Assembly: GCF_003334385.1 (NCBI RefSeq)
Contig: NZ_QOWN01000015.1
Strand: one strand, 5' to 3'
DNA from: Escherichia coli
Lineage (GTDB): Bacteria; Pseudomonadota; Gammaproteobacteria; Enterobacterales; Enterobacteriaceae
Length of the DNA stretch: 64,000 nucleotides
Each line of letters opens with the position of its first letter. Within the stretch, counting starts at the first letter, position 1. Made by a program: the position numbers and the translations under genes. Below the pieces are notes generated by a model. It was not told the origin of the DNA and made no database searches. It saw nothing but the letters and a program-made list of their open reading frames with translations. Below are positions 9,255 through 61,529 of the stretch, piece after piece.

Positions 9255-9902
<648 letters not shown>

Positions 9903-10018
9903 TTAGATATATTGATAAGAACAATTCTTATTTATCTGCTCGCCAGGAATTTTCGGAATAAATATGCTTTTGCATAATTCGATATATAAAGACGGTGTAG
10001 AGGAAAAGTAGCGAGAAA

Positions 10019-10048
10019 TTCTGCATGGTTATGCATAACCATGCAGAA
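10019..10048 (-). terminator. Perfect 30-bp palindromic hairpin immediately 3' of rhtA (likely rhtA terminator)
   Basis: TTCTGCATGGTTA-TGCA-TAACCATGCAGAA: 13-bp perfect stem, 4-nt palindromic loop, 9 nt downstream of the rhtA stop; moderately U-rich tail on minus strand. Confidence 0.5.
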
Positions 10049-10056
10049 ATGTAAAT

Positions 10057-10944
10057 TTAATTAATGTCTAATTCTTTTATTTTGCTCTCTTTGCGTACTG
10101 TCAGCGTAGACCCCATTGAAGCGGCGATGATAGCGCCGAGCGCCAGTAGCTGTATGGGTGTCAGTGTTTCTCCGAGGAAAATCATCCCGGAAACGGCAGC
10201 CAGCGCCGGTTCCATGCTCATCAGCGTACCAAATGTCCGTGTTGGCAAACGGGTGAGGGCAATCATTTCCAGCGAATAAGGCAGAGCGGTCGAGAGAATA
10301 GCGACAGCCAGACCCAATGGAATAACCGACCAGTGCCAGAGTGCTTCACCAGCCTGAAGCGCTCCAATTGGCACGAAAATTAACGCTGCAATCAACGAAC
10401 CAATTGCCACCGTCGCAGGGCCATGTTCCGCTCCTGCGCGTTGCCCACTTAAAATGTAAATAGCCCAACAAGCCCCGGCCCCCAGTGCCAGCGCACAGCC
10501 GGTTAAATCGACATGGGAAACGTCTTGCCCCAGCGGTAGCAGGAACCACAGACCAAGAACCGCTAGCACAACCCAGACGAAATCTACCGGGCGACGAGAA
10601 GAGAACAGCGCCACCGCCAGTGGTCCGGTGAACTCCAGCGCCACCGCAATACCCAGCGGTACTGTCTGAATAGAAAGATAAAAAAGATAATTCATCCCAC
10701 CCAGCGAAACGCCGTAAAACAACAGCGGTAACCGTTGCTCTTTGGCAAAGCGCAGTCGCCATGGCTTAAAGAACGCGATGAGGATCAGCGTTCCTAATGC
10801 CAGACGCAGCGCAGTGACACCCGGTGCGCCCACCAGAGGAAAAAGTGACTTAGCTAACGAGGCTCCACCCTGAATAGACGCCATGGCAACGAGCAATATG
10901 ACTATTGGTAACCAGACCGGCATTTTACGTAATGAACCAGGCAT
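10057..10944 (-). CDS. rhtA: Threonine/homoserine exporter RhtA (DMT family)
   Basis: 295-aa product starting MPGSLRKMPVWLPIV within ORF 10057..10956; 10-TM EamA-like protein. Confidence 0.9.
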   Translation of the reverse strand: MPGSLRKMPVWLPIVILLVAMASIQGGASLAKSLFPLVGAPGVTALRLALGTLILIAFFKPWRLRFAKEQRLPLLFYGVSLGGMNYLFYLSIQTVPLGIAVALEFTGPLAVALFSSRRPVDFVWVVLAVLGLWFLLPLGQDVSHVDLTGCALALGAGACWAIYILSGQRAGAEHGPATVAIGSLIAALIFVPIGALQAGEALWHWSVIPLGLAVAILSTALPYSLEMIALTRLPTRTFGTLMSMEPALAAVSGMIFLGETLTPIQLLALGAIIAASMGSTLTVRKESKIKELDIN

Positions 10945-18642: not shown

Positions 18643-19908
18643 TCAAACATCCATGCCCAACGCTCGCTTACCGTGAATGTTGAGGTCGGCAAGCGTAAAG
18701 CGTCCTTCCCAGTTTGTTTCATAGTCCTCGCGCGGGAAGTCGCCCGGCGATGCGCCTTTTTCCAGTGCGGCCTTCACCTTGTGCGCGTAGGCAAGATTTT
18801 TCTCGCACATCGGTGCCGCAGGAATGTACATCACGTTGCCCCAACCTTGTTGATTTTCAACGGGGGCAACGGAATGGATGACGTCGCAGTGCCACCAGAC
18901 GGAGTCTCCGGCTTCGAGTTTTGGAATGCTGGTTAACGCCTCAATCAACAGTGGATGTCATTGCTCTGATACCGGCAATACTCTTCCGGGCGCTACGCCG
19001 CACAGTTCATCCTCCGGCACATCATCAAGCAGCGGACGTAACAGTACGTACGCCATAGCTTCAGGAATGGGCACGACGTGCAGCAGCCCCTGACCAGGCA
19101 GCATATCAGAGAGCGCTGTCCAGCCCTGGAATGTCCGAAACACGGAACATTTGGTGGTGTTGTCCACCGTGTACTCTTCAACTTCCGTACGATGTGCCGC
19201 ATGCCAGGGATCATATTGCGCCAGATTGCCATTAAAGACGTTGGCGAAAACGCGCTGATACGCTGGAAGCAGCCAGCGTTCCAGTGCCCCGGAGTCGGTA
19301 TGCGCTCCAAGACCTTTGGAGGTCGTTCCGGGCGGACGGCGGCGGATACGGTCAGGGTAGATGACGCTCACATCCGGGTTAAACCATTGCTTTCCATCAC
19401 TTTCAAATGTCCACAGACGATTGAGAAACGACTGCGCATTCGCCATTTCTTCACTCTGGCGGGCCTGCATTTGCGCCTGCGACCAGTAGATGGGGTAAAT
19501 CTCGGGACGTGAAGCGCTGAGCGTCCCGAAGAAATTATCGCCGGGGCCTTTGTAGACCTCGTCAAAGCGGTTGCGGTCCAGATAGTCCAGCATCGACTGA
19601 TCCCAGCCTAGCGCTTGTTCGCGGGGGAAATGGCCTTTTATCACCGCACAACCGCGACGTTTAATCTGTTCGCGCTGCTCTGCAGTAACATGACCTGCTT
19701 TGATATCGGCATAAGACAGCACCGGCCAGACGGCATCGCCCTGTGCTTTGAGTGCGTTGATTTCAGCCACTCGCGTGGCAATGTCATCGCTTAGCTGATT
19801 AAAGATCTGCTGGACGTCGCCAAGCTGCGCCCGCAGCGCGTGCTTCATCTGACGGATAGCTGCTTTGTGATCGGCAGGCAATGTGTCGCTGGTAAAAGTA
19901 GAAGCCAT
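18643..19908 (-). pseudogene. ybiU: ybiU (DUF1479 family protein) interrupted by an in-frame TGA at 18958..18960
   Basis: ORFs 18958..19914 (318 aa) and 18643..18948 (101 aa) are in the same frame; read-through gives ...PVSEQ*HPLLIEALTSIP... and a 421-codon ORF from MASTFTSD, the length I recall for intact YbiU. Confidence 0.7.
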
Positions 19909-27414: not shown

Positions 27415-28380
27415 ATGGGCAAAGCAGTCATTGCAATTCATGGTGGCGCAGGTGCAATTAGCCGCGCGCAGATGAGTCTGCAACAGGAATTACGCTACAT
27501 CGAGGCGTTGTCTGCCATTGTTGAAACCGGGCAGAAAATGCTGGAAGCGGGCGAAAGTGCGCTGGATGTGGTGACGGAAGCGGTGCGTCTGCTGGAAGAG
27601 TGTCCACTGTTTAACGCCGGAATTGGCGCTGTCTTTACGCGTGATGAAACCCATGAACTGGACGCCTGTGTGATGGATGGTAACACCCTGAAAGCCGGTG
27701 CGGTGGCGGGCGTTAGTCATCTGCGTAATCCGGTTCTTGCCGCCCGGCTGGTGATGGAGCAAAGCCCGCATGTGATGATGATTGGCGAAGGGGCAGAAAA
27801 TTTTGCGTTTGCTCGTGGCATGGAGCGCGTCTCGCCGGAGATTTTCTCCACGCCTTTGCGTTATGAACAACTACTGGCAGCGCGCAAGGAAGGGGCAACC
27901 GTCCTCGACCATAGCGGTGCGCCACTGGATGAAAAACAGAAAATGGGCACCGTGGGGGCCGTGGCGTTGGATTTAGACGGCAATTTGGCGGCAGCCACGT
28001 CCACAGGCGGAATGACCAATAAATTACCCGGACGAGTTGGCGATAGTCCCTTAGTGGGTGCCGGATGCTACGCCAATAACGCCAGTGTGGCGGTTTCTTG
28101 TACCGGCACGGGCGAAGTCTTCATCCGCGCGCTGGCGGCATATGACATCGCCGCGTTAATGGATTACGGCGGATTAAGTCTCGCGGAAGCCTGCGAGCGG
28201 GTAGTAATGGAAAAACTCCCTGCGCTTGGCGGTAGCGGTGGCTTAATCGCTATCGACCATGAAGGGAATGTCGCGCTACCGTTTAACACCGAAGGAATGT
28301 ATCGCGCCTGGGGCTACGCAGGCGATACGCCAACCACCGGTATCTACCGTGAAAAAGGGGACACCGTTGCCACACAGTGA
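27415..28380 (+). CDS. iaaA: Isoaspartyl dipeptidase / L-asparaginase-like Ntn hydrolase IaaA
   Basis: 321-aa ORF with GAVALD...GTVGAV autoproteolytic Thr region of plant-type asparaginases. Confidence 0.9.
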
Positions 28381-30238
28381 TGAACTTGATGCCGGTAATG
28401 TGCTGGCGGTTGAAAATCTGAATATTGCCTTTATGCAGGACCAGCAGAAAATAGCTGCGGTCCGCAATCTCTCTTTTAGTCTGCAACGCGGTGAGACGCT
28501 GGCAATTGTTGGCGAATCCGGCTCCGGTAAGTCAGTGACTGCGTTGGCATTGATGCGCCTGTTGGAACAGGCGGGCGGTTTAGTACAGTGCGATAAAATG
28601 CTGTTGCAGCGGCGCAGTCGCGAAGTGATTGAACTTAGCGAGCAGAACGCTGCACAAATGCGCCATGTTCGCGGTGCGGATATGGCGATGATATTTCAGG
28701 AGCCGATGACATCGCTGAACCCGGTATTTACTGTGGGTGAACAGATTGCCGAATCAATTCGTCTGCATCAGAACGCCAGTCGTGAAGAAGCGATGGTCGA
28801 GGCGAAGCGGATGCTGGATCAGGTACGCATTCCTGAGGCACAAACCATTCTTTCACGTTATCCGCATCAACTCTCTGGCGGGATGCGCCAGCGAGTGATG
28901 ATTGCGATGGCGCTGTCATGCCGCCCGGCGGTGCTGATTGCCGATGAGCCAACCACCGCGCTGGATGTCACTATTCAGGCGCAGATCCTGCAATTAATCA
29001 AAGTATTGCAAAAAGAGATGTCGATGGGCGTTATCTTTATCACTCACGATATGGGCGTGGTGGCAGAGATTGCCGATCGGGTACTGGTGATGTATCAGGG
29101 CGAGGCGGTGGAAACGGGTACCGTCGAACAGATTTTTCATGCACCGCAACATCCTTACACCCGTGCGCTGTTAGCTGCTGTTCCGCAACTTGGTGCGATG
29201 AAAGGGTTAGATTATCCCCGACGTTTCCCGTTGATATCGCTTGAACATCCAGCGAAACAGGCCCCCCCCATCGAGCAGAAAACGGTGGTGGATGGCGAAC
29301 CTGTTTTACGAGTGCGTAATCTTGTCACCCGTTTCCCTTTGCGCAGCGGTTTGTTGAATCGCGTAACGCGGGAAGTGCATGCCGTTGAGAAAGTCAGTTT
29401 TGATCTCTGGCCTGGCGAAACGCTATCGCTGGTGGGCGAGTCTGGCAGCGGTAAATCCACTACCGGGCGGGCGTTGCTGCGCCTGGTCGAATCGCAGGGC
29501 GGCGAAATTATCTTTAACGGTCAGCGAATCGATACCTTGTCACCCGGCAAACTTCAGGCATTACGCCGGGATATTCAGTTTATTTTTCAGGACCCTTACG
29601 CTTCGCTGGACCCACGTCAGACCATCGGTGATTCGATTATCGAACCGCTGCGTGTACACGGTTTATTGCCAGGTAAAGACGCGGCTGCACGCGTTGCGTG
29701 GTTGCTGGAGCGCGTGGGCCTGTTACCTGAACATGCCTGGCGTTACCCGCATGAGTTTTCCGGCGGTCAGCGCCAGCGCATCTGCATTGCTCGCGCGTTG
29801 GCATTGAATCCAAAAGTGATCATTGCCGACGAAGCCGTTTCGGCGCTGGATGTTTCTATTCGCGGGCAGATTATCAACTTGTTGCTCGATCTCCAGCGTG
29901 ATTTCGGCATTGCGTATCTGTTTATCTCCCACGATATGGCGGTGGTAGAGCGGATTAGTCATCGTGTGGCGGTGATGTATCTCGGGCAAATTGTTGAAAT
30001 TGGTCCACGGCGCGCGGTCTTCGAAAACCCGCAGCATCCTTATACGCGTAAATTACTGGCGGCAGTTCCGGTCGCTGAACCGTCCCGACAACGACCGCAG
30101 CGTGTACTGCTGTCGGACGATCTTCCCAGCAATATTCATCTGCGTGGCGAAGAGGTGGCAGCCGTCTCGTTGCAATGCGTCGGGCCGGGGCATTACGTCG
30201 CACAACCACAATCAGAATACGCATTCATGCGTAGATAA
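28367..30238 (+). CDS. gsiA: Glutathione ABC importer ATP-binding protein GsiA (two fused ABC domains)
   Basis: Start assigned to TTG at 28367 (product begins MPHSDELD, 623 aa) within ORF 28259..30238; two Walker A and two LSGG signatures; overlaps iaaA 3' end by 14 nt. Confidence 0.82.
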
Positions 30239-30257
30239 CATTCAGGCGGAGAATAAA

Positions 30258-31796
30258 ATGGCAAGAGCTGTACACCGTAGTGGGTTAGTGGCGCTGGGCA
30301 TTGCGACAGCGTTGATGGCATCTTGTGCATTCGCTGCCAAAGATGTGGTGGTGGCGGTAGGATCGAATTTCACCACGCTCGATCCGTATGACGCAAATGA
30401 CACGTTATCTCAGGCCGTAGCGAAATCGTTTTACCAGGGGCTGTTCGGTCTGGATAAAGAGATGAAACTGAAAAACGTGCTGGCGGAGAGTTATACCGTT
30501 TCCGATGACGGCATTACTTACACCGTGAAATTGCGGGAAGGCATTAAATTCCAGGATGGCACCGATTTCAACGCCGCGGCGGTGAAAGCGAATCTGGACC
30601 GGGCCAGCGATCCGGCGAATCATCTTAAACGCTATAACCTGTATAAGAATATTGCTAAAACGGAAGCGATCGATCCGACAACGGTAAAGATTACCCTCAA
30701 ACAGCCGTTCTCAGCGTTTATTAATATTCTTGCCCATCCGGCGACCGCGATGATTTCACCGGCAGCGCTGGAAAAATATGGCAAGGAGATTGGTTTTTAT
30801 CCGGTGGGAACCGGACCGTATGAACTGGATACCTGGAATCAGACCGATTTTGTGAAGGTGAAAAAATTCGCGGGTTACTGGCAGCCAGGATTGCCCAAAC
30901 TGGACAGCATAACCTGGCGTCCGGTGGCGGATAACAACACCCGCGCGGCAATGCTGCAAACCGGTGAAGCGCAGTTTGCTTTCCCCATTCCTTACGAGCA
31001 GGCCACACTGCTGGAGAAAAACAAAAATATCGAGTTGATGGCCAGTCCGTCAATTATGCAGCGTTATATCAGTATGAACGTGACGCAAAAGCCGTTCGAT
31101 AACCCGAAGGTCCGTGAGGCGCTGAATTACGCCATTAACCGTCCGGCGCTGGTGAAAGTTGCCTTTGCGGGCTATGCAACGCCAGCTACTGGTGTGGTAC
31201 CGCCAAGTATCGCCTACGCGCAAAGTTATAAACCGTGGCCTTACGATCCAGTGAAAGCGCGCGAATTACTGAAAGAGGCGGGATATCCCAATGGTTTCAG
31301 TACCACGCTGTGGTCGTCACATAACCACAGCACCGCGCAGAAAGTGCTGCAATTTACCCAGCAGCAGTTAGCGCAGGTCGGGATTAAAGCCCAGGTGACT
31401 GCGATGGATGCCGGACAGCGGGCGGCAGAAGTTGAAGGTAAAGGGCAAAAAGAGAGCGGCGTGCGGATGTTCTACACTGGCTGGTCGGCTTCAACCGGCG
31501 AAGCGGACTGGGCACTATCGCCGCTGTTTGCCTCGCAGAACTGGCCACCGACGCTGTTTAATACCGCGTTTTACAGCAATAAACAGGTGGATGACTTCCT
31601 GGCTCAGGCACTGAAAACTAATGATCCGGCGGAAAAGACCCGCTTATATAAGGCGGCGCAGGATATCATCTGGCAAGAATCGCCGTGGATCCCGCTGGTG
31701 GTAGAAAAACTGGTGTCGGCACACAGTAAAAACCTGACCGGTTTTTGGATCATGCCAGACACCGGCTTCAGCTTTGAAGACGCGGATTTGCAATAA
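30258..31796 (+). CDS. gsiB: Glutathione-binding periplasmic protein GsiB
   Basis: 512-aa product [26 protein letters not shown]... (signal peptide) inside ORF 29991..31796; peptide/nickel SBP family. Confidence 0.9.
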
Positions 31797-31813
31797 GCAA
31801 CGCAGGGAGTGGA

Positions 31814-32734
31814 ATGCTTAATTACGTTATCAAACGCTTACTGGGGTTGATTCCGACGCTGTTTATCGTCTCGGTGCTGGTGTTTTTATTTGTCCATATG
31901 CTGCCCGGCGATCCGGCGCGATTGATTGCCGGGCCCGAAGCTGATGCGCAGGTTATAGAACTGGTGCGTCAGCAGCTGGGGTTGGATCAGCCGCTGTATC
32001 ACCAGTTCTGGCACTATATCAGCAATGCTGTGCAGGGGGATTTTGGCCTGTCGATGGTGTCGCGTCGTCCGGTTGCCGATGAGATTGCCAGCCGCTTTAT
32101 GCCAACGCTGTGGCTGACCATAACCAGTATGGTCTGGGCGGTTATATTTGGTATGGCGGCGGGAATTATCGCCGCCGTCTGGCGTAACCGTTGGCCGGAT
32201 CGATTGAGTATGACCATTGCGGTGTCGGGGATCTCGTTTCCGGCATTTGCTCTGGGGATGCTTTTAATTCAGGTATTCTCCGTTGAACTGGGCTGGCTGC
32301 CTACCGTGGGAGCAGACAGTTGGCAGCACTACATTTTACCCTCCCTGACGCTCGGCGCGGCAGTGGCCGCCGTGATGGCGCGCTTTACCCGCGCGTCGTT
32401 TGTCGATGTTTTAAGCGAAGATTATATGCGTACCGCGAGGGCGAAAGGGGTGAGCGAAACCTGGGTTGTCCTCAAACACGGGCTACGTAACGCGATGATC
32501 CCGGTAGTGACCATGATGGGCTTACAGTTTGGCTTTTTGCTCGGTGGTTCCATCGTTGTGGAGAAAGTTTTCAACTGGCCGGGACTTGGACGCTTACTCG
32601 TTGACTCCGTAGAAATGCGTGATTACCCGGTGATTCAGGCGGAAATTCTGCTTTTCTCGCTGGAATTTATTCTTATCAACTTAGTGGTGGATGTGCTTTA
32701 CGCCGCCATTAACCCGGCTATCAGGTACAAGTAA
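31814..32734 (+). CDS. gsiC: Glutathione ABC importer permease GsiC
   Basis: 306-aa DppB/OppB-type permease. Confidence 0.9.
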
Positions 32735-32736
32735 GG

Positions 32737-33648
32737 ATGCGACTATTTAACTGGCGACGTCAGGCGGTGTTAAACGCCATGCCACTGGTCAAACCTGACC
32801 AGGTACGTACACCGTGGCATGAATTCTGGCGACGATTTCGCCGTCAGCATATGGCGATGACCGCCGCATTATTCGTTATTTTATTGATTGTGGTGGCCAT
32901 TTTTGCACGCTGGATCGCTCCCTATGACGCCGAAAATTATTTTGATTATGACAATCTGAATAACGGACCTTCTTTGCAGCACTGGTTTGGCGTCGATTCA
33001 CTGGGGCGTGACATTTTCAGCCGTGTCCTGGTTGGTGCGCAAATCTCGCTGGCGGCGGGCGTGTTTGCCGTGTTTATCGGTGCGGCGATCGGGACGTTGC
33101 TGGGCTTGCTCGCTGGATATTATGAAGGCTGGTGGGATCGGCTGATCATGCGCATTTGCGATGTGCTGTTTGCCTTCCCGGGTATTTTACTGGCGATCGC
33201 TGTTGTTGCGGTGTTGGGAAGCGGCATTGCTAACGTGATTATTGCAGTCGCCATTTTTTCCATCCCCGCGTTTGCCCGCCTGGTGCGCGGCAACACGCTG
33301 GTGTTGAAACAGCAAACCTTTATTGAGTCAGCACGCAGTATTGGTGCCAGCGATATGACCGTTTTGTTGCGTCATATCCTGCCTGGGACCGTCTCTTCTA
33401 TCGTGGTGTTTTTCACCATGCGCATTGGTACCTCGATTATCTCTGCCGCCAGCCTCTCATTTCTCGGCCTCGGTGCGCAGCCGCCGACACCAGAGTGGGG
33501 AGCAATGCTCAATGAGGCTCGAGCGGATATGGTTATCGCGCCGCATGTCGCTGTTTTTCCGGCCCTGGCTATTTTTCTGACCGTACTGGCGTTCAATTTG
33601 TTGGGCGATGGTTTACGCGATGCGCTGGATCCGAAAATTAAAGGATAG
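32737..33648 (+). CDS. gsiD: Glutathione ABC importer permease GsiD
   Basis: 303-aa DppC/OppC-type permease. Confidence 0.9.
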
Positions 33649-33825
33649 TTACGTTTGAATATTGCTTGAAAGGGTAATCACCTCACAGGAAATTATTGCC
33701 CTAAGCAAGTGTTGTAACTTTCTGCTGATTTTGTAGAATCGGGTAATTTGGTTAAAAAGCCGCAGCAAGGGACAATTTTTGCAGCGGCACAGCGTTCAGA
33801 TAGTTATTTTGTTAAATGTATTAAC

Positions 33826-36174
33826 ATGCTGAGTTTATACGAAAAGATAAAGATAAGGCTGATAATTTTATTTTTATTGGCAGCACTGTCATTTATTGGT
33901 CTTTTTTTCATCATTAACTATCAACTGGTATCGGAGCGCGCGGTAAAACGTGCCGATAGCCGCTTTGAACTTATTCAGAAAAACGTTGGCTATTTCTTTA
34001 AAGATATTGAACGTTCGGCCCTGACATTAAAGGACTCACTGTATTTATTAAAAAATACAGAGGAGATTCAACGCGCCGTGATTCTTAAAATGGAAATGAT
34101 GCCATTTTTAGACTCGGTGGGACTGGTACTTGATGATAATAAATATTATCTTTTTTCGCGGAGGGCGAATGATAAAATCGTTGTTTATCATCAGGAACAA
34201 GTAAATGGACCGCTTGTCGACGAGTCAGGGCGGGTTATTTTTGCCGATTTTAACCCATCGAAACGACCGTGGTCGGTGGCTTCAGATGACTCTAACAACA
34301 GCTGGAATCCGGCATACAATTGCTTTGATCGTCCGGGTAAAAAATGTATCTCTTTTACGCTACACATCAACGGCAAAGATCACGATTTGTTAGCGGTGGA
34401 TAAAATTCATGTCGATTTAAACTGGCGATATCTGAACGAGTATCTTGATCAAATCAGCGCTAATGATGAAGTTCTATTTTTGAAACAAGGCCATGAGATC
34501 ATTGCCAAGAATCAACTCGCTCGTGAAAAACTGATTATTTATAATAGCGAAGGTAATTATAATATTATTGATTCTGTCGATACTGAATATATCGAAAAAA
34601 CATCAGCGGTGCCAAACAACGCATTATTCGAAATCTATTTTTATTATCCTGGCGGTAATTTATTGAACGCATCAGATAAACTTTTTTATCTGCCGTTTGC
34701 GTTCATTATTATCGTATTGCTGGTGGTTTATTTAATGACCACTCGTGTGTTCCGTCGGCAATTTTCTGAAATGACAGAGCTGGTTAATACGCTGGCGTTT
34801 TTGCCTGACTCAACGGATCAAATCGAGGCTCTGAAAATTCGTGAAGGCGATGCGAAAGAGATTATCAGCATCAAAAATTCGATCGCGGAAATGAAAGATG
34901 CCGAAATTGAACGGTCAAATAAATTGCTCTCACTGATCTCTTACGATCAGGAAAGTGGTTTTATTAAAAATATGGCGATTATTGAGTCTAACAATAATCA
35001 GTATCTGGCTGTGGGGATCATCAAACTGTGTGGTCTGGAAGCCGTGGAAGCGGTGTTTGGTGTTGATGAGCGCAATAAAATCGTCAGGAAATTGTCTCAG
35101 CGAATTGCCGAGAAATATGCGCAATGCTGCGATATCGTGACATTCAATGCCGATCTCTATTTACTTCTGTGTCGGGAAAATGTACAGACATTTACCCGTA
35201 AAATAGCGATGGTAAACGATTTTGACAGCAGCTTTGGCTACCGCAATCTGCGCATCCATAAGTCTGCCATTTGTGAACCTTTGCAGGGGGAAAACGCCTG
35301 GAGTTACGCAGAAAAACTGAAACTGGCGATTTCCAGTATCCGTGACCATATGTTCTCAGAGTTTATTTTCTGTGATGACGCGAAACTCAACGAAATAGAA
35401 GAGAATATCTGGATTGCGCGTAATATTCGCCATGCAATGGAAATTGGCGAACTATTCCTCGTCTATCAACCGATCGTTGATATTAACACCCGCGCCATTC
35501 TGGGCGCGGAGGCGTTGTGCCGTTGGGTGTCTGCGGAGCGGGGGATCATTTCACCGCTGAAGTTCATTACCATTGCTGAAGATATCGGGTTTATCAATGA
35601 GCTGGGTTATCAGATTATTAAAACGGCAATGGGTGAATTCAGACATTTTAGTCAGCGTGCGTCGCTGAAGGATGATTTCTTACTGCATATTAATGTTTCG
35701 CCCTGGCAGTTAAACGAACCACACTTTCATGAGCGTTTTACCACCATCATGAAAGAAAATGGCCTGAAGGCGAACAGCCTCTGTGTTGAGATCACTGAAA
35801 CCGTGATCGAGCGAATTAATGAACATTTTTATCTCAATATTGAACAACTGCGTAAACAAGGGGTACGGATATCGATTGATGACTTTGGCACCGGTTTGTC
35901 AAACCTGAAACGTTTTTATGAAATTAATCCAGACAGCATAAAGGTGGACTCGCAATTCACCGGCGATATTTTCGGTACTGCGGGAAAAATTGTGCGCATT
36001 ATTTTCGACCTGGCACGCTATAACCGGATCCCGGTGATTGCGGAAGGCGTAGAGAGCGAAGACGTTGCGCGCGAATTAATCAAATTAGGATGTGTTCAGG
36101 CTCAGGGGTATCTGTACCAGAAACCCATGCCATTCTCCGCCTGGGATAAAAGTGGAAAATTAGTAAAAGAGTAG
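33826..36174 (+). CDS. pdeI: c-di-GMP phosphodiesterase PdeI (YliE): periplasmic sensor domain plus EAL domain
   Basis: 782-aa product from [12 protein letters not shown] inside ORF 33748..36174; two TM segments; EAL motif (GAEALCRW) and downstream DDFGTG; AT-rich by eye. Confidence 0.8.
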
Positions 36175-36181
36175 TTTACGT

Positions 36182-37510
36182 ATGTCCAGAATCAATAAGT
36201 TCGTACTTACAGTCAGTCTGCTGATTTTTATCATGATTTCAGCAGTTGCCTGCGGGATCTACACTCAAATGGTAAAGGAACGGGTGTATAGCCTGAAACA
36301 GTCCGTTATTGATACTGCTTTTGCGGTGGCAAATATTGCTGAATATCGGCGTAGCGTGGCAATTGATCTTATCAACACGCTAAATCCCACGGAGGAACAG
36401 CTGTTGGTTGGTTTGCGCACAGCTTACGCCGACTCGGTTTCCCCCTCTTATTTGTACGATGTCGGTCCTTATCTGATTTCCAGTGACGAATGTATTCAGG
36501 TAAAGGAGTTCGAGAAAAATTATTGTGCAGATATTATGCAGGTTGTGAAGTATCGACATGTCAAAAATACAGGGTTTATCTCTTTTGACGGTAAAACCTT
36601 CGTCTATTACCTCTATCCGGTAACTCACAATCGTAGTCTGATATTTTTGCTTGGTCTGGAGCGTTTTTCTTTACTGTCAAAATCGCTGGCGATGGACAGC
36701 GAGAACCTGATGTTCTCTCTATTTAAGAACGGTAAACCGGTGACCGGTGATGAATATAATGCTAAAAACGCCATCTTCACCGTTTCGGAAGCGATGGAGC
36801 ACTTCGCCTATTTGCCGACCGGATTGTATGTATTTGCGTATAAAAAAGATGTTTATTTGCGGGTTTGTACATTGATTATTTTCTTTGCCGCATTGGTGGC
36901 AGTGATATCGGGTGCCAGTTGCCTCTATCTGGTACGCAGAGTGATTAATCGTGGTATTGTGGAGAAAGAAGCCATCATTAATAACCATTTTGAACGCGTA
37001 CTGGATGGCGGGCTTTTCTTTTCGGCTGCCGATGTCAAAAAACTCTACAGTATGTATAACTCGGCGTTCCTGGACGACCTGACCAAAGCAATGGGCAGAA
37101 AATCCTTTGACGAAGATTTAAAAGCGCTGCCGGAAAAAGGCGGTTATTTGTGCCTGTTTGACGTCGATAAATTCAAAAACATTAACGACACCTTCGGTCA
37201 TTTGCTGGGCGATGAAGTGTTGATGAAAGTGGTGAAAATCCTTAAATCACAGATCCCGGTAGATAAAGGTAAAGTCTACCGCTTCGGCGGTGACGAATTT
37301 GCGGTGATTTATACGGGTGGAACGCTGGAAGAGTTGCTATCGATTCTAAAAGAAATCGTTCATTTCCAGGTGGGAAGCATTAATTTAAGTACCAGTATCG
37401 GTGTAGCACATTCAAATGAATGTCCTACCGTCGAACGCTTGAAAATGCTGGCGGATGAGCGGCTGTATAAGAGTAAGAAAAACGGCAGGGCACAGATTAG
37501 CTGGCAGTAA
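36182..37510 (+). CDS. dgcI: Diguanylate cyclase DgcI (YliF), membrane-anchored GGDEF protein
   Basis: 442-aa ORF with TM segments and GGDEF motif (RFGGDEFAV). Confidence 0.85.
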
Positions 37511-37520
37511 TCATTATTCG

Positions 37521-37548
37521 CAGGCCGGACAAATGATTTTGCCCGGCC
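37521..37548. terminator. Stem-loop between convergent dgcI and rimO (CAGGCCGG...CCCGGCCTG)
   Basis: 8-bp GC-rich stem with 13-nt loop, flanked by A/T-rich sequence; weak terminator call. Confidence 0.4.
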
Positions 37549-37556
37549 TGAATTAA

Positions 37557-38882
37557 TTAAACCCGGCTACCCCACAAATCGTACTCATCGGCGTGCTCGA
37601 CTTTCACACGCAGGATATCACCCGGCTTAACGTTGGTTTCACCATTGAGATAAACCGCGCCGTCGATTTCCGGTGCATCTGCCATGCTGCGACCAATCGC
37701 GCCTTCTTCGTCCACTTCGTCGATAATCACCAGAATTTCACGGCCCACTTTCTCTTGCAGGCGCTCGGCGGAAATCTGCTGCTGCAGCTGCATGAAACGG
37801 TTCCAGCGTTCTTCTTTAACTTCTTCCGGAACCTGGTCAGGCAGGGCATTGGCGTCTGCACCTTCAACCGGGCTGTATTTAAAGCAGCCAACGCGATCCA
37901 GACGCGCTTCTTTCAGGAAGTCGAGTAGCATCTGGAAATCTTCTTCTGTCTCGCCAGGGAAGCCGACAATAAAGGTTGAGCGTAGGGTCAGTTCCGGGCA
38001 GATTTCGCGCCACTGTTTGATGCGCGCCAGTTGGCGATCTACAGAACCCGGACGCTTCATCAGTTTGAGAATGCGCGGGCTGGCGTGCTGCAACGGAATG
38101 TCCAGATACGGCAGGATTTTGCCTTCTGCCATCAGTGGGATGACGTCGTCCACATGCGGATAAGGGTAAACGTAGTGCAGACGTGTCCAGATCCCCAGTT
38201 TCGATAACTGTTCGCACAGGCTGACCATGCTGGTTTTTACCGGCTCGCCGTTGTGGAAGCCAGTACGATGTTTAACATCAACGCCATAGGCGGAAGTATC
38301 CTGCGAGATCACCAGAATCTCTTTAACGCCCGCATCTACCAGACGTTTCGCTTCACTTAACACTTCGCCAATCGGACGGCTCACCAGGTCGCCGCGCATA
38401 GACGGAATAATGCAGAAGGTGCAGCGGTGATTACAGCCTTCAGAAATTTTCAGATAGGCATAATGACGCGGCGTCAGTTTCACACCTTGTTCTGGCACCA
38501 GGCTCAGGAATGGGTTGTGTTTCGGTTTTGGCACGTAGTGATGAACGTGCTCCAGAACCTGCTCATAGCTATGAGGCCCGGTGATTTCCAGCACTTTCGG
38601 GTGGACTTCGCGGATCTGATCTTCTTTTGCCCCCAGACAACCGGTCACAATAACCTTGCCGTTTTCATTCAACGCTTCACCAATGGCTTCCAGTGATTCT
38701 TGTACCGCGCTGTCAATAAAGCCGCAGGTGTTGACGATCACCATGTCCGCATCGTCATAGCTCGGTACCACGTCATAACCTTCAGTGCGGAGTTCGGTGA
38801 GAATACGCTCTGAATCAACAAGGTTTTTCGGACAGCCAAGGGAAACAAAGCCGATTTTCGGCTGGGGAGTTACTTTGCTCAT
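37557..38882 (-). CDS. rimO: Ribosomal protein S12 methylthiotransferase RimO
   Basis: 441-aa ORF; MTTase N-terminal Cys triad, radical [11 protein letters not shown] motif, TRAM domain. Confidence 0.95.
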
Positions 38883-39094
38883 AGCTTAAAAAATATTCAG
38901 TTACAGGAAAGGTCAGGGCAGGGATTCTACAGAGTTCTGGATAAAATTTGTATCGCAATCTCATTCGCTGGCGGAGGCGAAGGAAATGTAAATTTTGTTA
39001 ATTCGGCGTGAAGAATTGATCCTGGACAGCATTTTGCTCAAAAAATAGCCATACTATTTAATTGCAACAAGGCAGGGAAGAGGAGGATCGAAGT

Positions 39095-39478
39095 ATGTTC
39101 GTTGACAGACAGCGAATCGATCTGCTGAACCGGTTGATCGACGCACGCGTTGACCTCGCCGCATACGTGCAACTGAGGAAGGCAAAAGGATACATGTCCG
39201 TCAGCGAAAGCAATCATCTACGAGATAACTTTTTTAAACTGAATCGCGAACTGCACGATAAATCGCTGCGGTTGAATCTTCATCTGGATCAGGAAGAGTG
39301 GAGTGCTCTTCATCATGCTGAAGAAGCATTAGCGACAGCCGCAGTATGTTTGATGAGTGGGCACCATGATTGCCCGACTGTTATTACCGTCAACGCCGAT
39401 AAGCTTGAAAATTGTCTGATGAGCTTAACGCTGAGTATCCAGAGCCTGCAGAAGCACGCCATGCTTGAGAAGGCCTGA
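39095..39478 (+). CDS. bssR: Biofilm regulator BssR (YliH)
   Basis: 127-aa product from MFVDRQRIDLLNRLIDARVDL inside ORF 39062..39478. Confidence 0.85.
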   Translation: MFVDRQRIDLLNRLIDARVDLAAYVQLRKAKGYMSVSESNHLRDNFFKLNRELHDKSLRLNLHLDQEEWSALHHAEEALATAAVCLMSGHHDCPTVITVNADKLENCLMSLTLSIQSLQKHAMLEKA

Positions 39479-39483
39479 AAACT

Positions 39484-39515
39484 AAGGGGGAGAAAGCGTC
39501 TCCCCCTTCATGTTT
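39484..39515 (+). terminator. Rho-independent terminator after bssR
   Basis: GGGGGAGA-AAGCG-TCTCCCCC hairpin followed by TTCATGTTTAAGTTTTTG. Confidence 0.65.
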
Positions 39516-39588
39516 AAGTTTTTGTAAAAATGAATTTGTTATCTCCTCCACTGACTACGCTTTAAGCCAGAGTCAATCCGGAGGCGTT

Positions 39589-40704
39589 ATGCATCGACAA
39601 TCCTTTTTCCTTGTGCCCCTTATTTGTCTTTCTTCCGCTCTCTGGGCGGCTCCTGCAACGGTAAATGTCGAAGTACTGCAAGACAAACTCGACCATCCCT
39701 GGGCACTGGCCTTTTTACCCGATAATCACGGTATGTTAATCACTCTGCGCGGCGGCGAGTTGCGTCACTGGCAAGCAGGAAAAGGATTATCTGCGCCGCT
39801 TTCCGGAGTTCCGGACGTTTGGGCGCACGGGCAGGGCGGCCTGCTGGACGTGGTTTTAGCGCCTGATTTTGCTCAGTCTCGCCGCATCTGGTTAAGTTAT
39901 TCCGAAGTTGGCGATGATGGCAAAGCCGGAACTGCTGTGGGTTATGGCCGCTTAAGTGATGATCTCTCAAAAGTGACCGACTTCCGCACCGTCTTTCGCC
40001 AGATGCCAAAACTGTCTACCGGCAACCATTTTGGCGGGCGGCTGGTATTCGACGGTAAAGGTTATCTTTTTATTGCTCTGGGCGAAAACAATCAGCGCCC
40101 GACGGCGCAGGATCTGGATAAATTACAGGGCAAACTGGTGCGTCTGACCGACCAGGGCGAAATCCCGGATGATAATCCTTTTATAAAGGAATCCGGTGCG
40201 CGCGCCGAGATCTGGTCTTATGGCATTCGTAATCCGCAAGGAATGGCGATGAATCCGTGGAGTAATGCACTGTGGCTGAATGAACATGGCCCGCGCGGTG
40301 GTGATGAAATTAATATCCCGCAAAAAGGCAAAAACTACGGCTGGCCGCTGGCAACCTGGGGAATCAACTATTCAGGCTTTAAGATACCGGAAGCGAAAGG
40401 GGAGATCGTCGCCGGGACCGAGCAACCTGTTTTTTACTGGAAAGATTCGCCCGCTGTGAGCGGCATGGCCTTCTATAACAGCGATAAATTCCCCCAGTGG
40501 CAGCAAAAATTATTTATTGGCGCGCTGAAAGATAAAGATGTCATTGTGATGAGCGTCAACGGCGACAAAGTGACAGAAGATGGCCGTATTTTAACGGACA
40601 GAGGGCAGCGAATTCGTGATGTTCGCACTGGACCCGACGGTTATTTATACGTTCTCACCGACGAGTCCAGTGGGGAATTACTTAAAGTTAGCCCACGCAA
40701 TTAG
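39589..40704 (+). CDS. yliI: Soluble aldose sugar dehydrogenase YliI (PQQ-dependent beta-propeller)
   Basis: 371-aa ORF with signal peptide; glucose/sorbosone dehydrogenase family. Confidence 0.9.
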
Positions 40705-41327
40705 CTAACGGGAATCATCACCACTTTGCGCACTGCGGGGCGTTCAGTGAGTTGCTGATACCAGCGTTGCAGATTTGGACGCGGTGTCCAGGTCAGGCCA
40801 ACGTTAAACAAATTGTAGATGAACGGTGCGATAGCGATATCGCCCACACCAAACTCGTCGCCAGAGAACCATTTTACTTTTGCCAGTTCCGCATCGAGCA
40901 GGGCAAACAGGGCGTCGCACTCTTTGCAACTGGCATCAATGGCGGCCTGATCGCGCTCTTCCGGTGGTGTTCTGACTAATCCCATCAGGATCCCGCGATG
41001 AGCATTACTGAGCGTCTGGTTTGCCCAGTCCATCCATTTTTCCGCTTCCGCACGACGTGCCGGTGAGTCGATCCACAGGCGTTTTTGCCCGTACTGTGCC
41101 GCCAGATAGCGGACAATGGCGTTTGATTCCCAAAGAATGAGATCACTTTCGTCGTCACGCAACAACGGCACCAGCCCGTTAGGGTTCATCGCCAGAAAAT
41201 CAGCATCGTGATTTATCCCAAACTCACGGCCCGCGAGAATTTGCTCATAAGGTAGTTCCAGTTCTTCGAGCGTCAGCAATACTTTTTTTACGTTAGTTGA
41301 ATTATTCCGACCCCACAGCGTAATCAT
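40701..41327 (-). CDS. gstB: Glutathione S-transferase GstB (YliJ)
   Basis: 208-aa product from [15 protein letters not shown] inside ORF 40701..41333; stop codon overlaps yliI stop. Confidence 0.85.
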
Positions 41328-41573
41328 ACTCACCCCTTTTCCGACAGGCAGCCACAGGCTGAACAGGACTCCGATGGTGAAGTAAAGTTAACTTTTAAGC
41401 AACAGCTGGCAAAAAAATGACACCAGAAGCAGCGAAGCGGCAGGATATTGCATAAACTTTAAAAACTTTACCAACTTACGGTTTCTTTAAGTTTGTGTGT
41501 GCGTTATTAATCACCAAACTTATCATACGGCGATATAACGTATTTTTTTTGAATGGATACTCGGGTGGCATTT

Positions 41574-42776
41574 ATGACGCAATACTCCTCTCTCCTTCGT
41601 GGTCTTGCAGCGGGTTCTGCATTTTTATTCCTTTTTGCCCCAACGGCATTCGCGGCGGAACAAACCGTTGAAGCGCCGAGCGTGGATGCGCGTGCATGGA
41701 TTTTAATGGATTACGCCAGCGGTAAAGTGCTGGCAGAAGGCAATGCGGATGAGAAACTGGATCCCGCGAGCCTGACTAAAATCATGACCAGCTATGTGGT
41801 TGGGCAGGCGCTTAAGGCCGATAAGATTAAACTCACCGATATGGTGACGGTCGGTAAAGATGCCTGGGCGACGGGAAATCCGGCACTGCGTGGTTCATCG
41901 GTAATGTTCCTCAAACCGGGCGATCAGGTTTCGGTGGCAGACTTGAACAAAGGTGTGATTATCCAGTCCGGTAATGACGCCTGTATTGCGCTGGCTGATT
42001 ACGTTGCCGGGAGCCAGGAGTCATTTATTGGTCTGATGAATGGTTATGCCAAAAAACTGGGTCTGACCAACACTACCTTCCAGACGGTGCACGGCCTGGA
42101 TGCGCCGGGGCAGTTCAGCACCGCGCGCGATATGGCATTGCTGGGTAAAGCATTGATCCACGATGTGCCGGAAGAGTACGCCATTCATAAAGAGAAAGAG
42201 TTCACCTTCAACAAAATTCGTCAGCCTAACCGTAACCGTCTGCTGTGGAGCAGCAATCTGAATGTTGATGGCATGAAGACAGGAACCACGGCAGGCGCGG
42301 GATATAATCTGGTTGCTTCGGCTACCCAGGGCGATATGCGTTTAATCTCCGTAGTGTTGGGGGCGAAAACCGACCGTATCCGTTTTAATGAGTCTGAGAA
42401 ATTATTGACCTGGGGTTTCCGCTTCTTTGAAACCGTGACGCCAATTAAACCTGATGCCACCTTTGTGACTCAGCGCGTCTGGTTTGGTGATAAGAGCGAA
42501 GTGAATCTCGGGGCAGGTGAAGCGGGCTCAGTGACCATACCGCGTGGGCAGCTGAAAAACCTGAAAGCGAGTTATACGTTAACGGAACCGCAGCTTACCG
42601 CACCGCTGAAAAAAGGTCAGGTTGTCGGGACCATTGATTTCCAGCTTAACGGTAAATCCATTGAGCAGCGTCCGCTGATCGTGATGGAAAATGTGGAAGA
42701 GGGCGGATTCTTTGGTCGGGTGTGGGATTTCGTGATGATGAAATTCCATCAGTGGTTCGGCAGCTGGTTCTCTTAA
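41574..42776 (+). CDS. dacC: D-alanyl-D-alanine carboxypeptidase DacC (PBP6)
   Basis: 400-aa product from [27 protein letters not shown] inside ORF 41553..42776; SxxK (ASLTK), SGN and KTG motifs. Confidence 0.9.
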
Positions 42777-42786
42777 TCTTCTGATA

Positions 42787-42815
42787 ACCGGATGGCGCGA
42801 AACGTCATCCGGTTA
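42787..42815. terminator. Stem-loop between convergent dacC and deoR (AACCGGATG...CATCCGGTT)
   Basis: 9-bp perfect stem with 11-nt loop; T-rich on plus strand downstream. Confidence 0.45.
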
Positions 42816-42822
42816 TACGTCA

Positions 42823-43581
42823 TTAATACATCAACTTAATGCGCTGCGTCTGCGCGTACTTCACATACTCATCTTCCGGGCAACAATCGCTCACCACAAT
42901 ATCAAAGCGTTTCAGGTCACCCATGCGCGCCGGACGCACCTTGCCAAATTTACTGTGGTCGACAACCAGCACATGCTTTTGCGCCATCGACATGGCCCAG
43001 TGTTTTACCGGCAACTCTTCAAGATTAAAACAGGTAGCGCCTTTACTGACATGCACGCCCGCCGCAGAATAAAAAGCGATATCCGGGCAAAAATTATTCA
43101 GCGTTTGCTGAAAATCGATGGGTTTGAAAATGGCGTTGCTGGCGTGAAATTCACCACCGCAAAGAAACGCGCGGCAATGGGGTTTCTCTTTCAGCGCCAG
43201 AAAGGTATTTAGCGAATAACAAACGGCGGTAAAAGGGATTTCATTATCAATCGCTTCAATAATCCACGGCGTGGTGGTGCCACAGTCAAAAAAGAGGGTC
43301 TGATCGGGTTCTACCAGCGTCGCAGCCAGTTTTGCCGCCCGGCGTTTTTCTTCCACCAGGCGGGATTTTTGATCGCTTAACAGGTAATGGCTGGCACTGC
43401 GCGGTTCCAGAACAATATAGCCGCCGAGCAAAACGACGGGCGCACTGTGGTTGTTCAGATCGCGACGAATCGTCATCTCCGAAACCCCAAGCAGGGCGGC
43501 GGCGTCTTTAAGATGTAACTTATCGCTGCGTTTTAATTCTTGCAGCAGCTGCCCGATACGCTCTTCGCGACGTGTTTCCAT
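42823..43581 (-). CDS. deoR: Deoxyribose operon repressor DeoR
   Basis: 252-aa DeoR-family HTH regulator (METRREERIGQLLQELKRSDKLHLKDAAALLGVSEMTIRRDL). Confidence 0.95.
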   Translation of the reverse strand: METRREERIGQLLQELKRSDKLHLKDAAALLGVSEMTIRRDLNNHSAPVVLLGGYIVLEPRSASHYLLSDQKSRLVEEKRRAAKLAATLVEPDQTLFFDCGTTTPWIIEAIDNEIPFTAVCYSLNTFLALKEKPHCRAFLCGGEFHASNAIFKPIDFQQTLNNFCPDIAFYSAAGVHVSKGATCFNLEELPVKHWAMSMAQKHVLVVDHSKFGKVRPARMGDLKRFDIVVSDCCPEDEYVKYAQTQRIKLMY

Positions 43582-43638
43582 AATCCCTCTGAATAGTTAT
43601 TGAAGCGAGCCGCTCAATACTACACTTTTTAGCAGAGA

Positions 43639-60542: not shown

Positions 60543-60641
<99 letters not shown>

Positions 60642-60690
60642 ATTTTACCTTTGTCATCAGTCTCAAGCCGCGGTTGCGGCTTTCTGAATC

Positions 60691-61422: not shown

Positions 61423-61486
61423 GATGGAACTCCCGTCTGTCAATCTTATGATTTTTGGCCGTGTCTGCGGCATGGGATAACAATGC

Positions 61487-61504
61487 CATCAAGTGAATTT
61501 ATAT
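61487..61504. promoter_or_regulatory. Candidate ARG box (ArgR operator) upstream of artJ (AGTGAATTTATATGCAAT)
   Basis: Fits TnTGAATwwwwATTCAnw with one mismatch in the right half-site; about 65-80 nt upstream of artJ ATG. Confidence 0.35.
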
Positions 61505-61529
61505 GCAATAAACATGATTAAATAATTTA

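Follow-up and report, generated by a model that had tools for sequence, protein, structure and literature searches.

The pdeI-dgcI pair of Escherichia coli as a probable H-NS/StpA-silenced foreign islet encoding a c-di-GMP sensor cassette

Xenogeneically silenced islets of E. coli and Salmonella are AT-rich with respect to their host, are inserted in a lineage-restricted manner, show strong de-repression with sharp borders in hns stpA mutants and are expressed more at 37 °C. The pdeI-dgcI gene pair shares these features and differs from such islets in having only two genes, in being old, fixed throughout the genus and under purifying selection, and in lacking integrase, tRNA or repeat scars. 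The closest described relatives of the pair are YliE/YliF cassettes found on plasmids and on an island, which have the same two-gene order, domain architecture, catalytic residues and periplasmic cysteine pairs, and which are likewise restricted to Escherichia, except for one Salmonella plasmid; the plasmid homologues were already reported in a 2025 preprint (bioRxiv 10.1101/2025.05.09.653004). IS elements, a relaxase or an integrase border these cassettes, and bcsA-bcsB is often adjacent, while the chromosomal pair has none of these neighbors; the GC content of the cassettes is 33-35%, against 42-44% for the chromosomal pair.

The two products also resemble several families of signaling proteins. 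dCache domains, which are found in KinD, CqsR, Mlp37, Tlp3, PctA-C and a CdgH-type DGC of Aeromonas caviae, share with the PdeI and DgcI sensors the predicted fold and a cytoplasmic output, but the latter match no Pfam dCache model and each has an invariant cysteine pair. The disulfide-regulated PDEs with a CSS domain (PdeC type) combine, as PdeI does, membrane anchoring, an EAL domain and a periplasmic domain with a conserved cysteine pair; PdeI differs from them by its dCache-like fold and an extra degenerate GGDEF domain, and has no CSS-motif domain match in Pfam. In the PdeR/DgcM trigger pair and in LapD-like receptors a degenerate GGDEF domain, which controls the EAL domain or a partner protein, is located upstream of the EAL domain, as in PdeI. 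Further similarities are that PdeI has a dedicated partner cyclase and that its output is altered by a point mutation in the degenerate domain, G412S; unlike in LapD, the EAL domain is predicted to be active. PdeI-DgcI also differs in that the partner is encoded together with PdeI in one operon and that each protein is a sensor anchored in the membrane.

The pair is likely a foreign islet of about 3.9 kb, silenced by H-NS/StpA, which encodes a two-gene c-di-GMP sensor cassette and would act as a signal-controlled switch when expressed. It belongs to a textbook class of features and is ordinary biology, mostly in the public record already, and it leaves the current understanding of E. coli c-di-GMP signaling and xenogeneic silencing unchanged. 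The window is the whole 64-kb stretch of E. coli DNA that was analyzed, whose positions 33000-38000 are 100% identical to the E. coli K-12 MG1655 record NZ_CP032667.1. The features of the locus are the following:

33649-33825, + strand: gsiD-pdeI spacer, left end of the inserted segment (empty-site alignment; GC drop)
33712-33739, + strand: candidate pdeI promoter, TTGTAA, 16 nt, TAGAAT (putative; consensus scan)
33826-36174, + strand: pdeI (yliE, b0833), 782 aa (annotation, Pfam, hydropathy; GC 0.416)
33922-34680, + strand: PdeI periplasmic sensor, aa 33-285 (Pfam CHASE9 at aa 35-150)
34936-35400, + strand: PdeI internal GGDEF-like domain, aa 371-525 (family alignment)
35419-36126, + strand: PdeI EAL domain, aa 532-767 (PF00563, E = 2e-69)
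36182-37510, + strand: dgcI (yliF, b0834), 442 aa (annotation, Pfam; GC 0.435)
36257-36868, + strand: DgcI periplasmic sensor, aa 26-229 (Pfam GAPES2, E = 2e-143)
37064-37492, + strand: DgcI GGDEF domain, aa 295-437 (PF00990, E = 1.6e-24)
37521-37550, no strand assigned: GC-rich hairpin with 13-nt arms and a 4-nt loop, an inverted repeat between the convergent dgcI and rimO

The dgcI gene starts 7 nt past the pdeI stop, and the annotated ends of the pair coincide with the coordinates of the earlier note. The earlier note on this DNA had judged the two genes by eye to be much more AT-rich than their flanks, and the calculation bears this out: the GC content of 33826-37510 is 0.4225, against 0.5145 in the remainder of the window. 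When a 3685-nt frame is slid along the whole window (mean 0.509, sd 0.025), the minimum, 0.419, is reached at 33601, so the lowest-GC 3.7-kb stretch is the pdeI-dgcI region. With the other 56 complete genes of the window as reference (mean 0.519, sd 0.031), the z-scores are -3.3 for pdeI and -2.7 for dgcI, and only the 42-codon mntS has a lower GC content. In 500-nt windows the dip starts within the gsiD-pdeI spacer, where centered windows go down to 0.41-0.38, and it is deepest (0.37-0.40) at the PdeI sensor region, the most AT-rich part of the pair.

Codons ending in A or T, to which the note had pointed, are part of this signal but an incomplete description of it, since all three codon positions are affected: pdeI, dgcI and the other genes of the window have GC3 of 0.451, 0.497 and 0.575, GC1 of 0.49, 0.485 and 0.584, and GC2 of 0.307, 0.323 and 0.398, respectively. 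The amino-acid composition of both products is therefore shifted too. The proposed codon-adaptation calculation gave Sharp-Li CAI values of 0.275 (pdeI) and 0.29 (dgcI), ordinary among the weakly expressed genes of the window; the index does not separate the pair from these genes and was rejected as evidence on origin.

The borders of the islet are seen by comparison with empty sites. Homology to the empty sites of Salmonella and Citrobacter ends at the gsiD stop codon (33646-33648). On the other side, the gsiD-rimO spacers of empty sites hold GC-rich palindromes comparable to the hairpin at 37521-37550, which is probably a bidirectional terminator inherited from the original gsiD/rimO junction and would thus mark the right edge of the insertion. 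Direct or inverted terminal repeats are lacking at the islet borders, the islet matches no Rfam family, and no integrase, transposase, tRNA target or IS scars are found at the chromosomal locus.

The phylogenetic distribution, which the note had proposed to check, is confined to Escherichia at this one site, with sister genera empty. At least 5388 of 5426 complete E. coli genomes carry the pair, and E. fergusonii and E. albertii share the order gsiD-pdeI-dgcI-rimO. Full-length relatives of PdeI are limited to E. coli, E. marmotae (92% identity), E. albertii (88%) and E. fergusonii (69%), and the next matches are generic EAL proteins of about 30% identity. An exhaustive phmmer search with PdeI residues 1-521 against 1.84 billion representatives returned 54 matches, almost all of them Escherichia fragments, and profile searches with both sensor modules found only Escherichia and Shigella proteins. 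None of the 59 non-Escherichia Enterobacterales loci that hold gsiD and rimO has the pair, and tblastn (E <= 1e-5) detects no pdeI or dgcI relics in the gsiD/rimO spacers of other genera. The stop codons of gsiD and rimO are less than 300 bp apart in 37 of 63 loci, and the junction is variable, with other cargo of at least 1 kb in 14 non-Escherichia loci. One exhaustive search and three word-indexed ones turned up no donor outside Escherichia, and the case for a foreign origin is built on the distribution and composition of the pair and on the mobility of its relatives.

These relatives are distant two-gene cassettes with 30-41% identity to the chromosomal pair and 33-35% GC. They are present on 78 PLSDB plasmids (77 from Escherichia, one from Salmonella), often next to bcsA-bcsB, and distant cassettes are also found beside a TraI_2 relaxase, a UvrD-type helicase and an integrase at tRNA-Phe. 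The family consists of four deep lineages, across which the pairwise identities of PdeI-like and DgcI-like proteins are correlated with r = 0.993.

Amelioration of the chromosomal copy is partial and decreases from GC3 through GC1 to GC2. Mobile and chromosomal copies have GC3 of 0.26-0.31 and 0.37-0.50 and GC1 of 0.37-0.45 and 0.46-0.50, respectively, while GC2 is 0.31-0.33 in both. On the E. coli lineage, synonymous changes in the pair comprise 59 AT-to-GC and 19 GC-to-AT, against 154 and 134 in the flanks (Fisher p = 4e-4), with the outgroup being saturated and more AT-rich, which inflates AT-to-GC calls; the E. albertii lineage has only a weak trend (51 versus 34). E. fergusonii was rejected as an ordinary close outgroup, the entire gsiA-ybjH block being saturated. 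Both genes are under purifying selection, with dN/dS against E. albertii of 0.059 for pdeI and 0.046 for dgcI.

In the preferred reading, the cassette would have come from a very AT-rich gene pool, like that of its present mobile relatives of about 33-35% GC, and would have been inserted between the convergent gsiD and rimO in an ancestor of the genus Escherichia. Since then purifying selection has maintained it, and its composition is drifting toward that of the host, the drift being fastest at third codon positions and absent at second positions. The old horizontal acquisition that the note had suggested from composition is supported by the restriction to Escherichia, the single site that is empty in sister genera, the mobile family and the partial amelioration. 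The locus thereby illustrates the life history of a small foreign module, an AT-rich cassette captured once, fixed in the genus, silenced and slowly ameliorated, and still functional.

Two other origins were weighed. The pair could be native and vertically inherited, its AT-richness reflecting the amino-acid make-up of membrane sensors together with relaxed codon selection. The low GC2 (0.31-0.32) does imply that part of the GC deficit is due to amino-acid composition, the CAI resembles that of other weakly expressed genes, and the locus is free of mobility scars. This origin is nevertheless very improbable: the pair is missing from the 59 non-Escherichia syntenic sites, other genera are empty in three protein searches, the other membrane-protein and weakly expressed genes of the window have normal GC, GC on the E. 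coli lineage is rising and not decaying, and relatives are carried by plasmids and an island. Alternatively, the pair could be ancestral to Enterobacteriaceae and lost many times, with Escherichia as the sole survivor, and turnover at the site is indeed common, as the 14 non-Escherichia loci with other cargo of at least 1 kb indicate. Such a history is very improbable, for it needs many independent clean deletions, leaving a spacer of 40-120 bp in 37 loci of more than 20 genera, it finds no remnant or homologue outside Escherichia in the searches, apart from the one Salmonella plasmid, and it leaves the 42% GC unexplained.

The AT-rich composition that the cassette has kept would make it a target of H-NS/StpA, which would silence it from its own putative promoter. 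According to RNA-seq of an hns stpA mutant, pdeI is de-repressed about 113-fold and dgcI about 51-fold (log2 fold change of wild type relative to hns stpA, -6.82 for b0833 and -5.68 for b0834), while the flanks are unchanged (gsiD +0.47, rimO -0.29) (PMC4288151 supplement). These data support the H-NS silencing that the note had thought probable: H-NS/StpA keep the pair almost silent, presumably by direct H-NS binding, though the effect of the double mutation might conceivably be indirect. Published expression data also show higher levels of the pair at 37 °C than at 23 °C. The cassette would then be almost unexpressed under standard culture conditions and would be switched on at 37 °C or once silencing is relieved. 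Since pdeI is de-repressed in hns stpA and gsiD is not, a promoter of its own is implied for pdeI. The candidate at 33712-33739 is located within a block conserved among three species, E. coli, E. albertii and E. fergusonii, and GATTTTGTAGAATC is invariant in all of them despite the saturation of synonymous sites in E. fergusonii. Promoter-like sites in the islet as a whole number 9, versus 9.5 expected by shuffling, with no excess beyond composition.

PdeI is built, in this order, by a first transmembrane helix (TM1), the periplasmic sensor, TM2, a linker, a degenerate GGDEF-like domain and the EAL domain, and DgcI by TM1, the periplasmic sensor, TM2 and the GGDEF domain. The large periplasmic regions noted earlier in both proteins have about 250 aa in PdeI, where hydropathy places them between two TM segments, and about 200 aa in DgcI, also between two TM segments. 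In the family alignment Trp160, Cys166 and Cys174 of the PdeI sensor and Cys104 and Cys115 of the DgcI sensor are invariant. AF2 models of the sensors, built on five-sequence alignments, have pLDDT of 81 (PdeI) and 80 (DgcI). Foldseek matches the PdeI sensor to dCache ligand-binding domains, with E down to 8.5e-07 among solved domains and 4.8e-09 to an integrative model of the Bacillus subtilis chemoreceptors MCPB-MCPC, and the best matches of the DgcI sensor are the sensor domains of KinD and CqsR; the probability is 1.0 for many dCache domains, with TM to target of 0.55-0.72. Both sensors are thus predicted by modeling to have the dCache fold, a long stalk helix and two PAS-like modules between the TM helices. 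Neither is matched by the Pfam models dCache_1/2/3, and CHASE9 and GAPES2 are the only matches. The idea that the sensors are duplicates with the same ligand lacks support at the sequence level, as comparing the profiles of the two modules gave no relationship (probability 0.6%).

The EAL catalytic and metal-binding set of PdeI is complete (ExLxR, N, ExxE, DD, K, E, Q). Glu562, Leu564, Arg566, Asn623, Glu655, Glu658, Asp685, Asp686, Lys706, Glu740, Glu743 and Gln760 are invariant in the four deep lineages, whose mutual identity is only 30-38%, and a published motif table agrees. The internal domain has no Pfam GGDEF match, none of the lineages keeps GGDEF at the motif position (NADLY, SPYKY, SDKIF or NKNKY instead), and Gly412, which the published G412S allele alters, falls within this domain. 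In DgcI the RxGGDEF motif is intact: Arg367, Gly369 to Phe373 and the metal-binding Asp327 and Asp329 are invariant. The RxxD inhibitory site, which is common in GGDEF domains and does not define them, was not found upstream of it, also in agreement with the published table. DgcI would synthesize c-di-GMP, and PdeI would degrade it, with an EAL activity gated by the sensor and the degenerate GGDEF domain. When expressed, the two proteins would most likely work together as a single signal-controlled switch acting on the c-di-GMP pool.

Overexpression of PdeI blocks the c-di-GMP-dependent phage N4, as that of six other PDEs does, in keeping with PDE activity in vivo, and motile suppressors of a pdeH mutant include pdeI alleles. 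According to an eLife paper, overexpressed PdeI lifts c-di-GMP about 11-fold; the paper also reports that the level of PdeI-BFP correlates with c-di-GMP and that G412S abolished the effect (PMC11651652). The 11-fold rise is unexplained by a simple model in which PdeI is the PDE of the pair. PdeI could instead raise net c-di-GMP, either making it itself or stimulating DgcI or a different cyclase, an idea put forward on the basis of single-cell data and suggested by these three observations, and the co-divergence of the two proteins would suit a physical partnership. A net increase through PdeI is nonetheless clearly unlikely, considering that cyclase activity is implausible for a domain lacking the GGDEF motif in four lineages and any Pfam GGDEF match, that the EAL catalytic set is invariant, and that both the N4 resistance and the motile suppressor alleles stand against it. 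A more elaborate proposal, which is tentative and rather unlikely, is that PdeI and DgcI form an obligate co-evolving two-sensor switch, a portable controller of transferred cellulose synthases whose chromosomal copy was orphaned when bcs was lost; the two proteins might even assemble in the membrane, the inactive GGDEF domain of PdeI pairing with the GGDEF domain of DgcI. If this were true, the effect on c-di-GMP would be set by DgcI together with the state of the sensors and of their conserved periplasmic disulfides, and the conflicting reports of lowered and raised c-di-GMP upon PdeI overexpression would be reconciled.

The note had also suggested a function linked to thiol or biofilm physiology from the neighboring gsi genes and bssR. 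The evidence does not favor this link: gsiD and rimO are adjacent in most related genera and the pair was dropped between them, the hns stpA data show no co-regulation of the pair with gsiD, and the mobile cassettes adjoin cellulose synthase genes, not thiol genes. As the neighborhood is an accident of insertion, the glutathione and bssR neighbors are uninformative about function, which corrects a case of guilt by association. A thiol or redox angle persists solely through the invariant periplasmic cysteine pairs of the two sensors, which are a separate line of evidence.

The pdeI-dgcI pair, which encodes a predicted c-di-GMP phosphodiesterase (PdeI) and a predicted diguanylate cyclase (DgcI), is an ordinary and largely documented case of a foreign islet that is ameliorating under H-NS silencing. 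The window comes from E. coli K-12, with 100% identity to MG1655 over bases 33000-38000, and the two genes, separated by 7 nt, are flanked by gsiD and the convergent rimO. Their annotated positions are:

33826-36174: pdeI (yliE, b0833)
36182-37510: dgcI (yliF, b0834)

GC content is 42.25% over the pair and 51.45% in the remainder of the window. The pair forms the lowest-GC 3.7-kb stretch of the 64 kb (sliding mean 0.509, sd 0.025, minimum 0.419), and the dip is at its deepest across the sensor region of pdeI. The genes, with GC of 0.416 (pdeI) and 0.435 (dgcI), lie 3.3 and 2.7 sd under the 56 other window genes, among which only the 42-codon mntS is lower, so the AT-richness against the flanks that the earlier note had seen by eye is real. 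GC is depressed at codon positions 1, 2 and 3, so that amino-acid composition is shifted besides synonymous usage; the earlier emphasis on codons ending in A or T was correct but incomplete. Of the two measures then proposed, GC is anomalous and CAI is unremarkable. Other 1-kb windows below 44% GC are just 9001-10100 (glnH-dps region, 0.429-0.435) and 60601-61600, which covers artJ and its upstream region (0.438; artJ gene 0.448).

The phylogenetic distribution confines the pair to Escherichia. Among 5.8 billion clusters searched with a word index, full-length PdeI is limited to E. coli, E. marmotae (92%), E. albertii (88%) and E. fergusonii (69%), and matches below the E. fergusonii level are generic EAL only, at about 30% identity. 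An exhaustive phmmer search of 1.84 billion representatives with the non-EAL part of PdeI (aa 1-521) gives 54 matches, nearly all fragments of Escherichia PdeI, and sensor-module profiles of both proteins match sequences from Escherichia and Shigella alone. The locus is present in at least 5388 of 5426 complete E. coli genomes, and the gsiD-pdeI-dgcI-rimO order is common to E. fergusonii and E. albertii. In a GsiD-anchored sample of 80 Enterobacterales loci, one genome per species, tblastn finds the pair in E. albertii only among the fetched loci, and in 0 of the 59 non-Escherichia loci with both gsiD and rimO. iaaA, between moeA and gsiA, is present in E. coli and E. albertii and not in E. 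fergusonii (L005 4346-4559).

In 37 of 63 loci, less than 300 bp separates the stop codons of gsiD and rimO. E. coli homology to the empty sites runs up to the gsiD stop codon and no further, and on the right side a GC-rich hairpin (37521-37550) ahead of the rimO stop resembles palindromes in empty-site spacers. No integrase, tRNA, repeats or Rfam element was found within the chromosomal islet. The junction (33649-37556) holds unrelated cargo of 2-8 kb in 14 non-Escherichia lineages (loci L013, L016, L019, L022, L024, L030, L034, L036, L047, L055, L058, L065, L073 and L081), which makes it a recurrent insertion point; several cargoes are AT-rich against their flanks, and examples are LysR plus an MFS transporter (Phytobacter, Kosakonia) and a chemoreceptor-like gene (Pantoea). 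A HEAT-repeat gene of about 230 aa adjoins rimO in E. albertii (L006 13672-14385), where it sits between dgcI and rimO and overlaps the dgcI end, and in Superficieibacter and a Pseudocitrobacter MAG (L034 11941-12630; L047 14057-14731); the proteins share 43-52% identity and leave no trace in E. coli K-12.

The PdeI sensor part has just two true distant relatives, the proteins P0038 (30%) and P0049 (25%) from mobile cassettes, whose genes are each directly followed by a GAPES2-GGDEF gene. In an E. coli-like genome, one cassette is located at the tRNA-Phe/speC site, next to a phage-type integrase, a TraI_2 relaxase and a UvrD-type helicase, and the other is found on large E. coli plasmids amid IS elements. 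By tblastn, PdeI-like genes occur on 78 PLSDB plasmids (77 Escherichia, one Salmonella), with IncHI1B or IncFII replicons in the inspected cases, and the plasmid cassette often adjoins bcsA-bcsB. Such plasmid-borne relatives are already reported in a 2025 preprint, as Escherichia-restricted YliE/YliF homologues (28-41% identity) on bcs plasmids (bioRxiv 10.1101/2025.05.09.653004). The present analysis adds that the cassettes form four deep lineages, in which PdeI-like and DgcI-like pairwise identities correlate with r = 0.993, so the two genes have always travelled and diverged together. The plasmid PdeI-like protein of pTB402 (L090 8634-10982) has a tandem (INS)n repeat of about 9 units within the CHASE9 region, which is missing from all other lineages.

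Base composition of mobile and chromosomal copies
Mobile: GC 0.325-0.352; GC3 0.26-0.31; GC1 0.37-0.45; GC2 0.31-0.33
Chromosomal: GC 0.39-0.435; GC3 0.37-0.50; GC1 0.46-0.50; GC2 0.31-0.33

If the mobile copies stand in for the cassette as it arrived, and the mean of the local genes is the end point, the E. coli pair would have covered about 60% of the distance at GC3, about 45% at GC1 and none at GC2, values that depend on this choice of stand-in. The Lawrence-Ochman amelioration model predicts the same position order (third > first > second). Synonymous differences between E. coli and E. albertii, polarised with E. fergusonii, give 59 AT-to-GC against 19 GC-to-AT changes for the pair in the E. 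coli lineage and 154 against 134 for the flanks (Fisher p = 4e-4), an excess that is probably inflated by the saturation and higher AT content of the outgroup; in the E. albertii lineage there is a trend only (51 against 34). Escherichia-only distribution, empty gsiD/rimO sites, mobile relatives and partial amelioration together uphold the foreign origin that base composition had suggested.

Values of dN/dS against E. albertii (pdeI 0.059, dgcI 0.046) are near those of neighbouring genes, with the region's highest dN in pdeI, and both genes are maintained, with no decay. IS1A breaks pdeI near the start of the EAL domain in E. coli LD27-1 (L094 3164-3861; equivalent near window 35600), and the same match pattern indicates interruption in at least three further strains (H1-H4), so pdeI is occasionally inactivated in nature; the insertion fits published reports that H-NS-bound DNA attracts transposition. 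The E. fergusonii block from gsiA to ybjH (L005 4559-22286; window ~28367-46077) is synonymously saturated against E. coli (dS 1.0-2.7), while adjoining fsa, moeB and moeA have dS of 0.25-0.44. Its GC3 is lower, GsiABCD is no closer to E. coli (p = 0.136) than the Citrobacter and Salmonella proteins are (0.11-0.13), and RimO groups normally; the block has the look of an introgression or of an ancient, divergent haplotype, with pdeI-dgcI still aboard.

The H-NS silencing proposed earlier is borne out by a supplementary edgeR table comparing wild type with hns stpA (PMC4288151; negative values, lower in wild type). The log2FC is -6.82 for b0833 (p 4e-51) and -5.68 for b0834 (p 1e-70), with +0.47 for gsiD and -0.29 for rimO, so de-repression, about 113-fold for pdeI and 51-fold for dgcI, is restricted to the AT-rich block and implies a promoter of its own. 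The candidate promoter, at 33712-33739 (TTGTAA, 16 nt, TAGAAT), lies within a block that is conserved across the three Escherichia species. On this reading H-NS would occupy the pair directly. In CFT073 both genes are more strongly expressed at 37 C than at 23 C, as fits H-NS-type thermoregulation. bssR (b0836, 39095-39478) responds the other way in the hns stpA data (log2FC +3.78), with expression about 14-fold lower in the mutant.

As the earlier note had it, both proteins have large periplasmic sensor regions. PdeI consists of TM1, a periplasmic domain of about 250 aa, TM2, a linker, a GGDEF-like domain, which Pfam does not recognize, and an EAL domain (E = 2e-69), with CHASE9 at aa 35-150; DgcI consists of TM1, a GAPES2 domain of about 200 aa, TM2 and a GGDEF domain. 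AlphaFold models of the N-terminal parts (pLDDT 81 and 80; alignments of five sequences each) resemble ligand-binding domains of the dCache type, among them those of KinD, CqsR, Mlp37 and Tlp3; no sequence relationship was detected between the two sensors. In each sensor a pair of periplasmic Cys residues is invariant (PdeI C166/C174; DgcI C104/C115). The EAL catalytic set is invariant among lineages with mere 30-38% identity, and the GGDEF motif is absent from the internal domain of PdeI in every lineage aligned. DgcI retains RxGGDEF and the metal-binding Asp residues and lacks the RxxD site.

Published evidence on the net effect of PdeI is in conflict. PdeI overexpression blocks the c-di-GMP-dependent phage N4, like other PDEs, and activating pdeI alleles appear in a pdeH mutant, whereas an eLife study gives an 11-fold rise of c-di-GMP on PdeI overexpression (PMC11651652). 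Judged by its motifs, PdeI cannot be a cyclase, and the rise, if real, must be indirect, with DgcI as the obvious candidate partner. Most probably, the cyclase and the phosphodiesterase would each be gated by a periplasmic small-molecule sensor of its own, possibly also by redox state, and would be expressed jointly only upon relief of H-NS silencing. Because the pair is inserted between the ancestrally adjacent gsiD and rimO, the gsi and bssR neighbours are functionally uninformative, and the thiol or biofilm role once read from them is not sustained; the mobile copies, with their bcsA-bcsB neighbours, point to cellulose synthase as the natural client.

Elsewhere in the window, ybiU has an in-frame stop at codon 318 (SEQ*HPLL; 18955-18957, minus strand), but the MG1655 record, which is otherwise identical, annotates an intact gene. 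The 101 nt around it are identical in 0 of 5426 complete E. coli genomes (best 99.0%), and the stop is a private mutation or an error in the source sequence. The ybiO-glnQ spacer, between 6328 and 6588, differs by 1 bp in length from NZ_CP032667.1, and the upstream genes are offset by one base.
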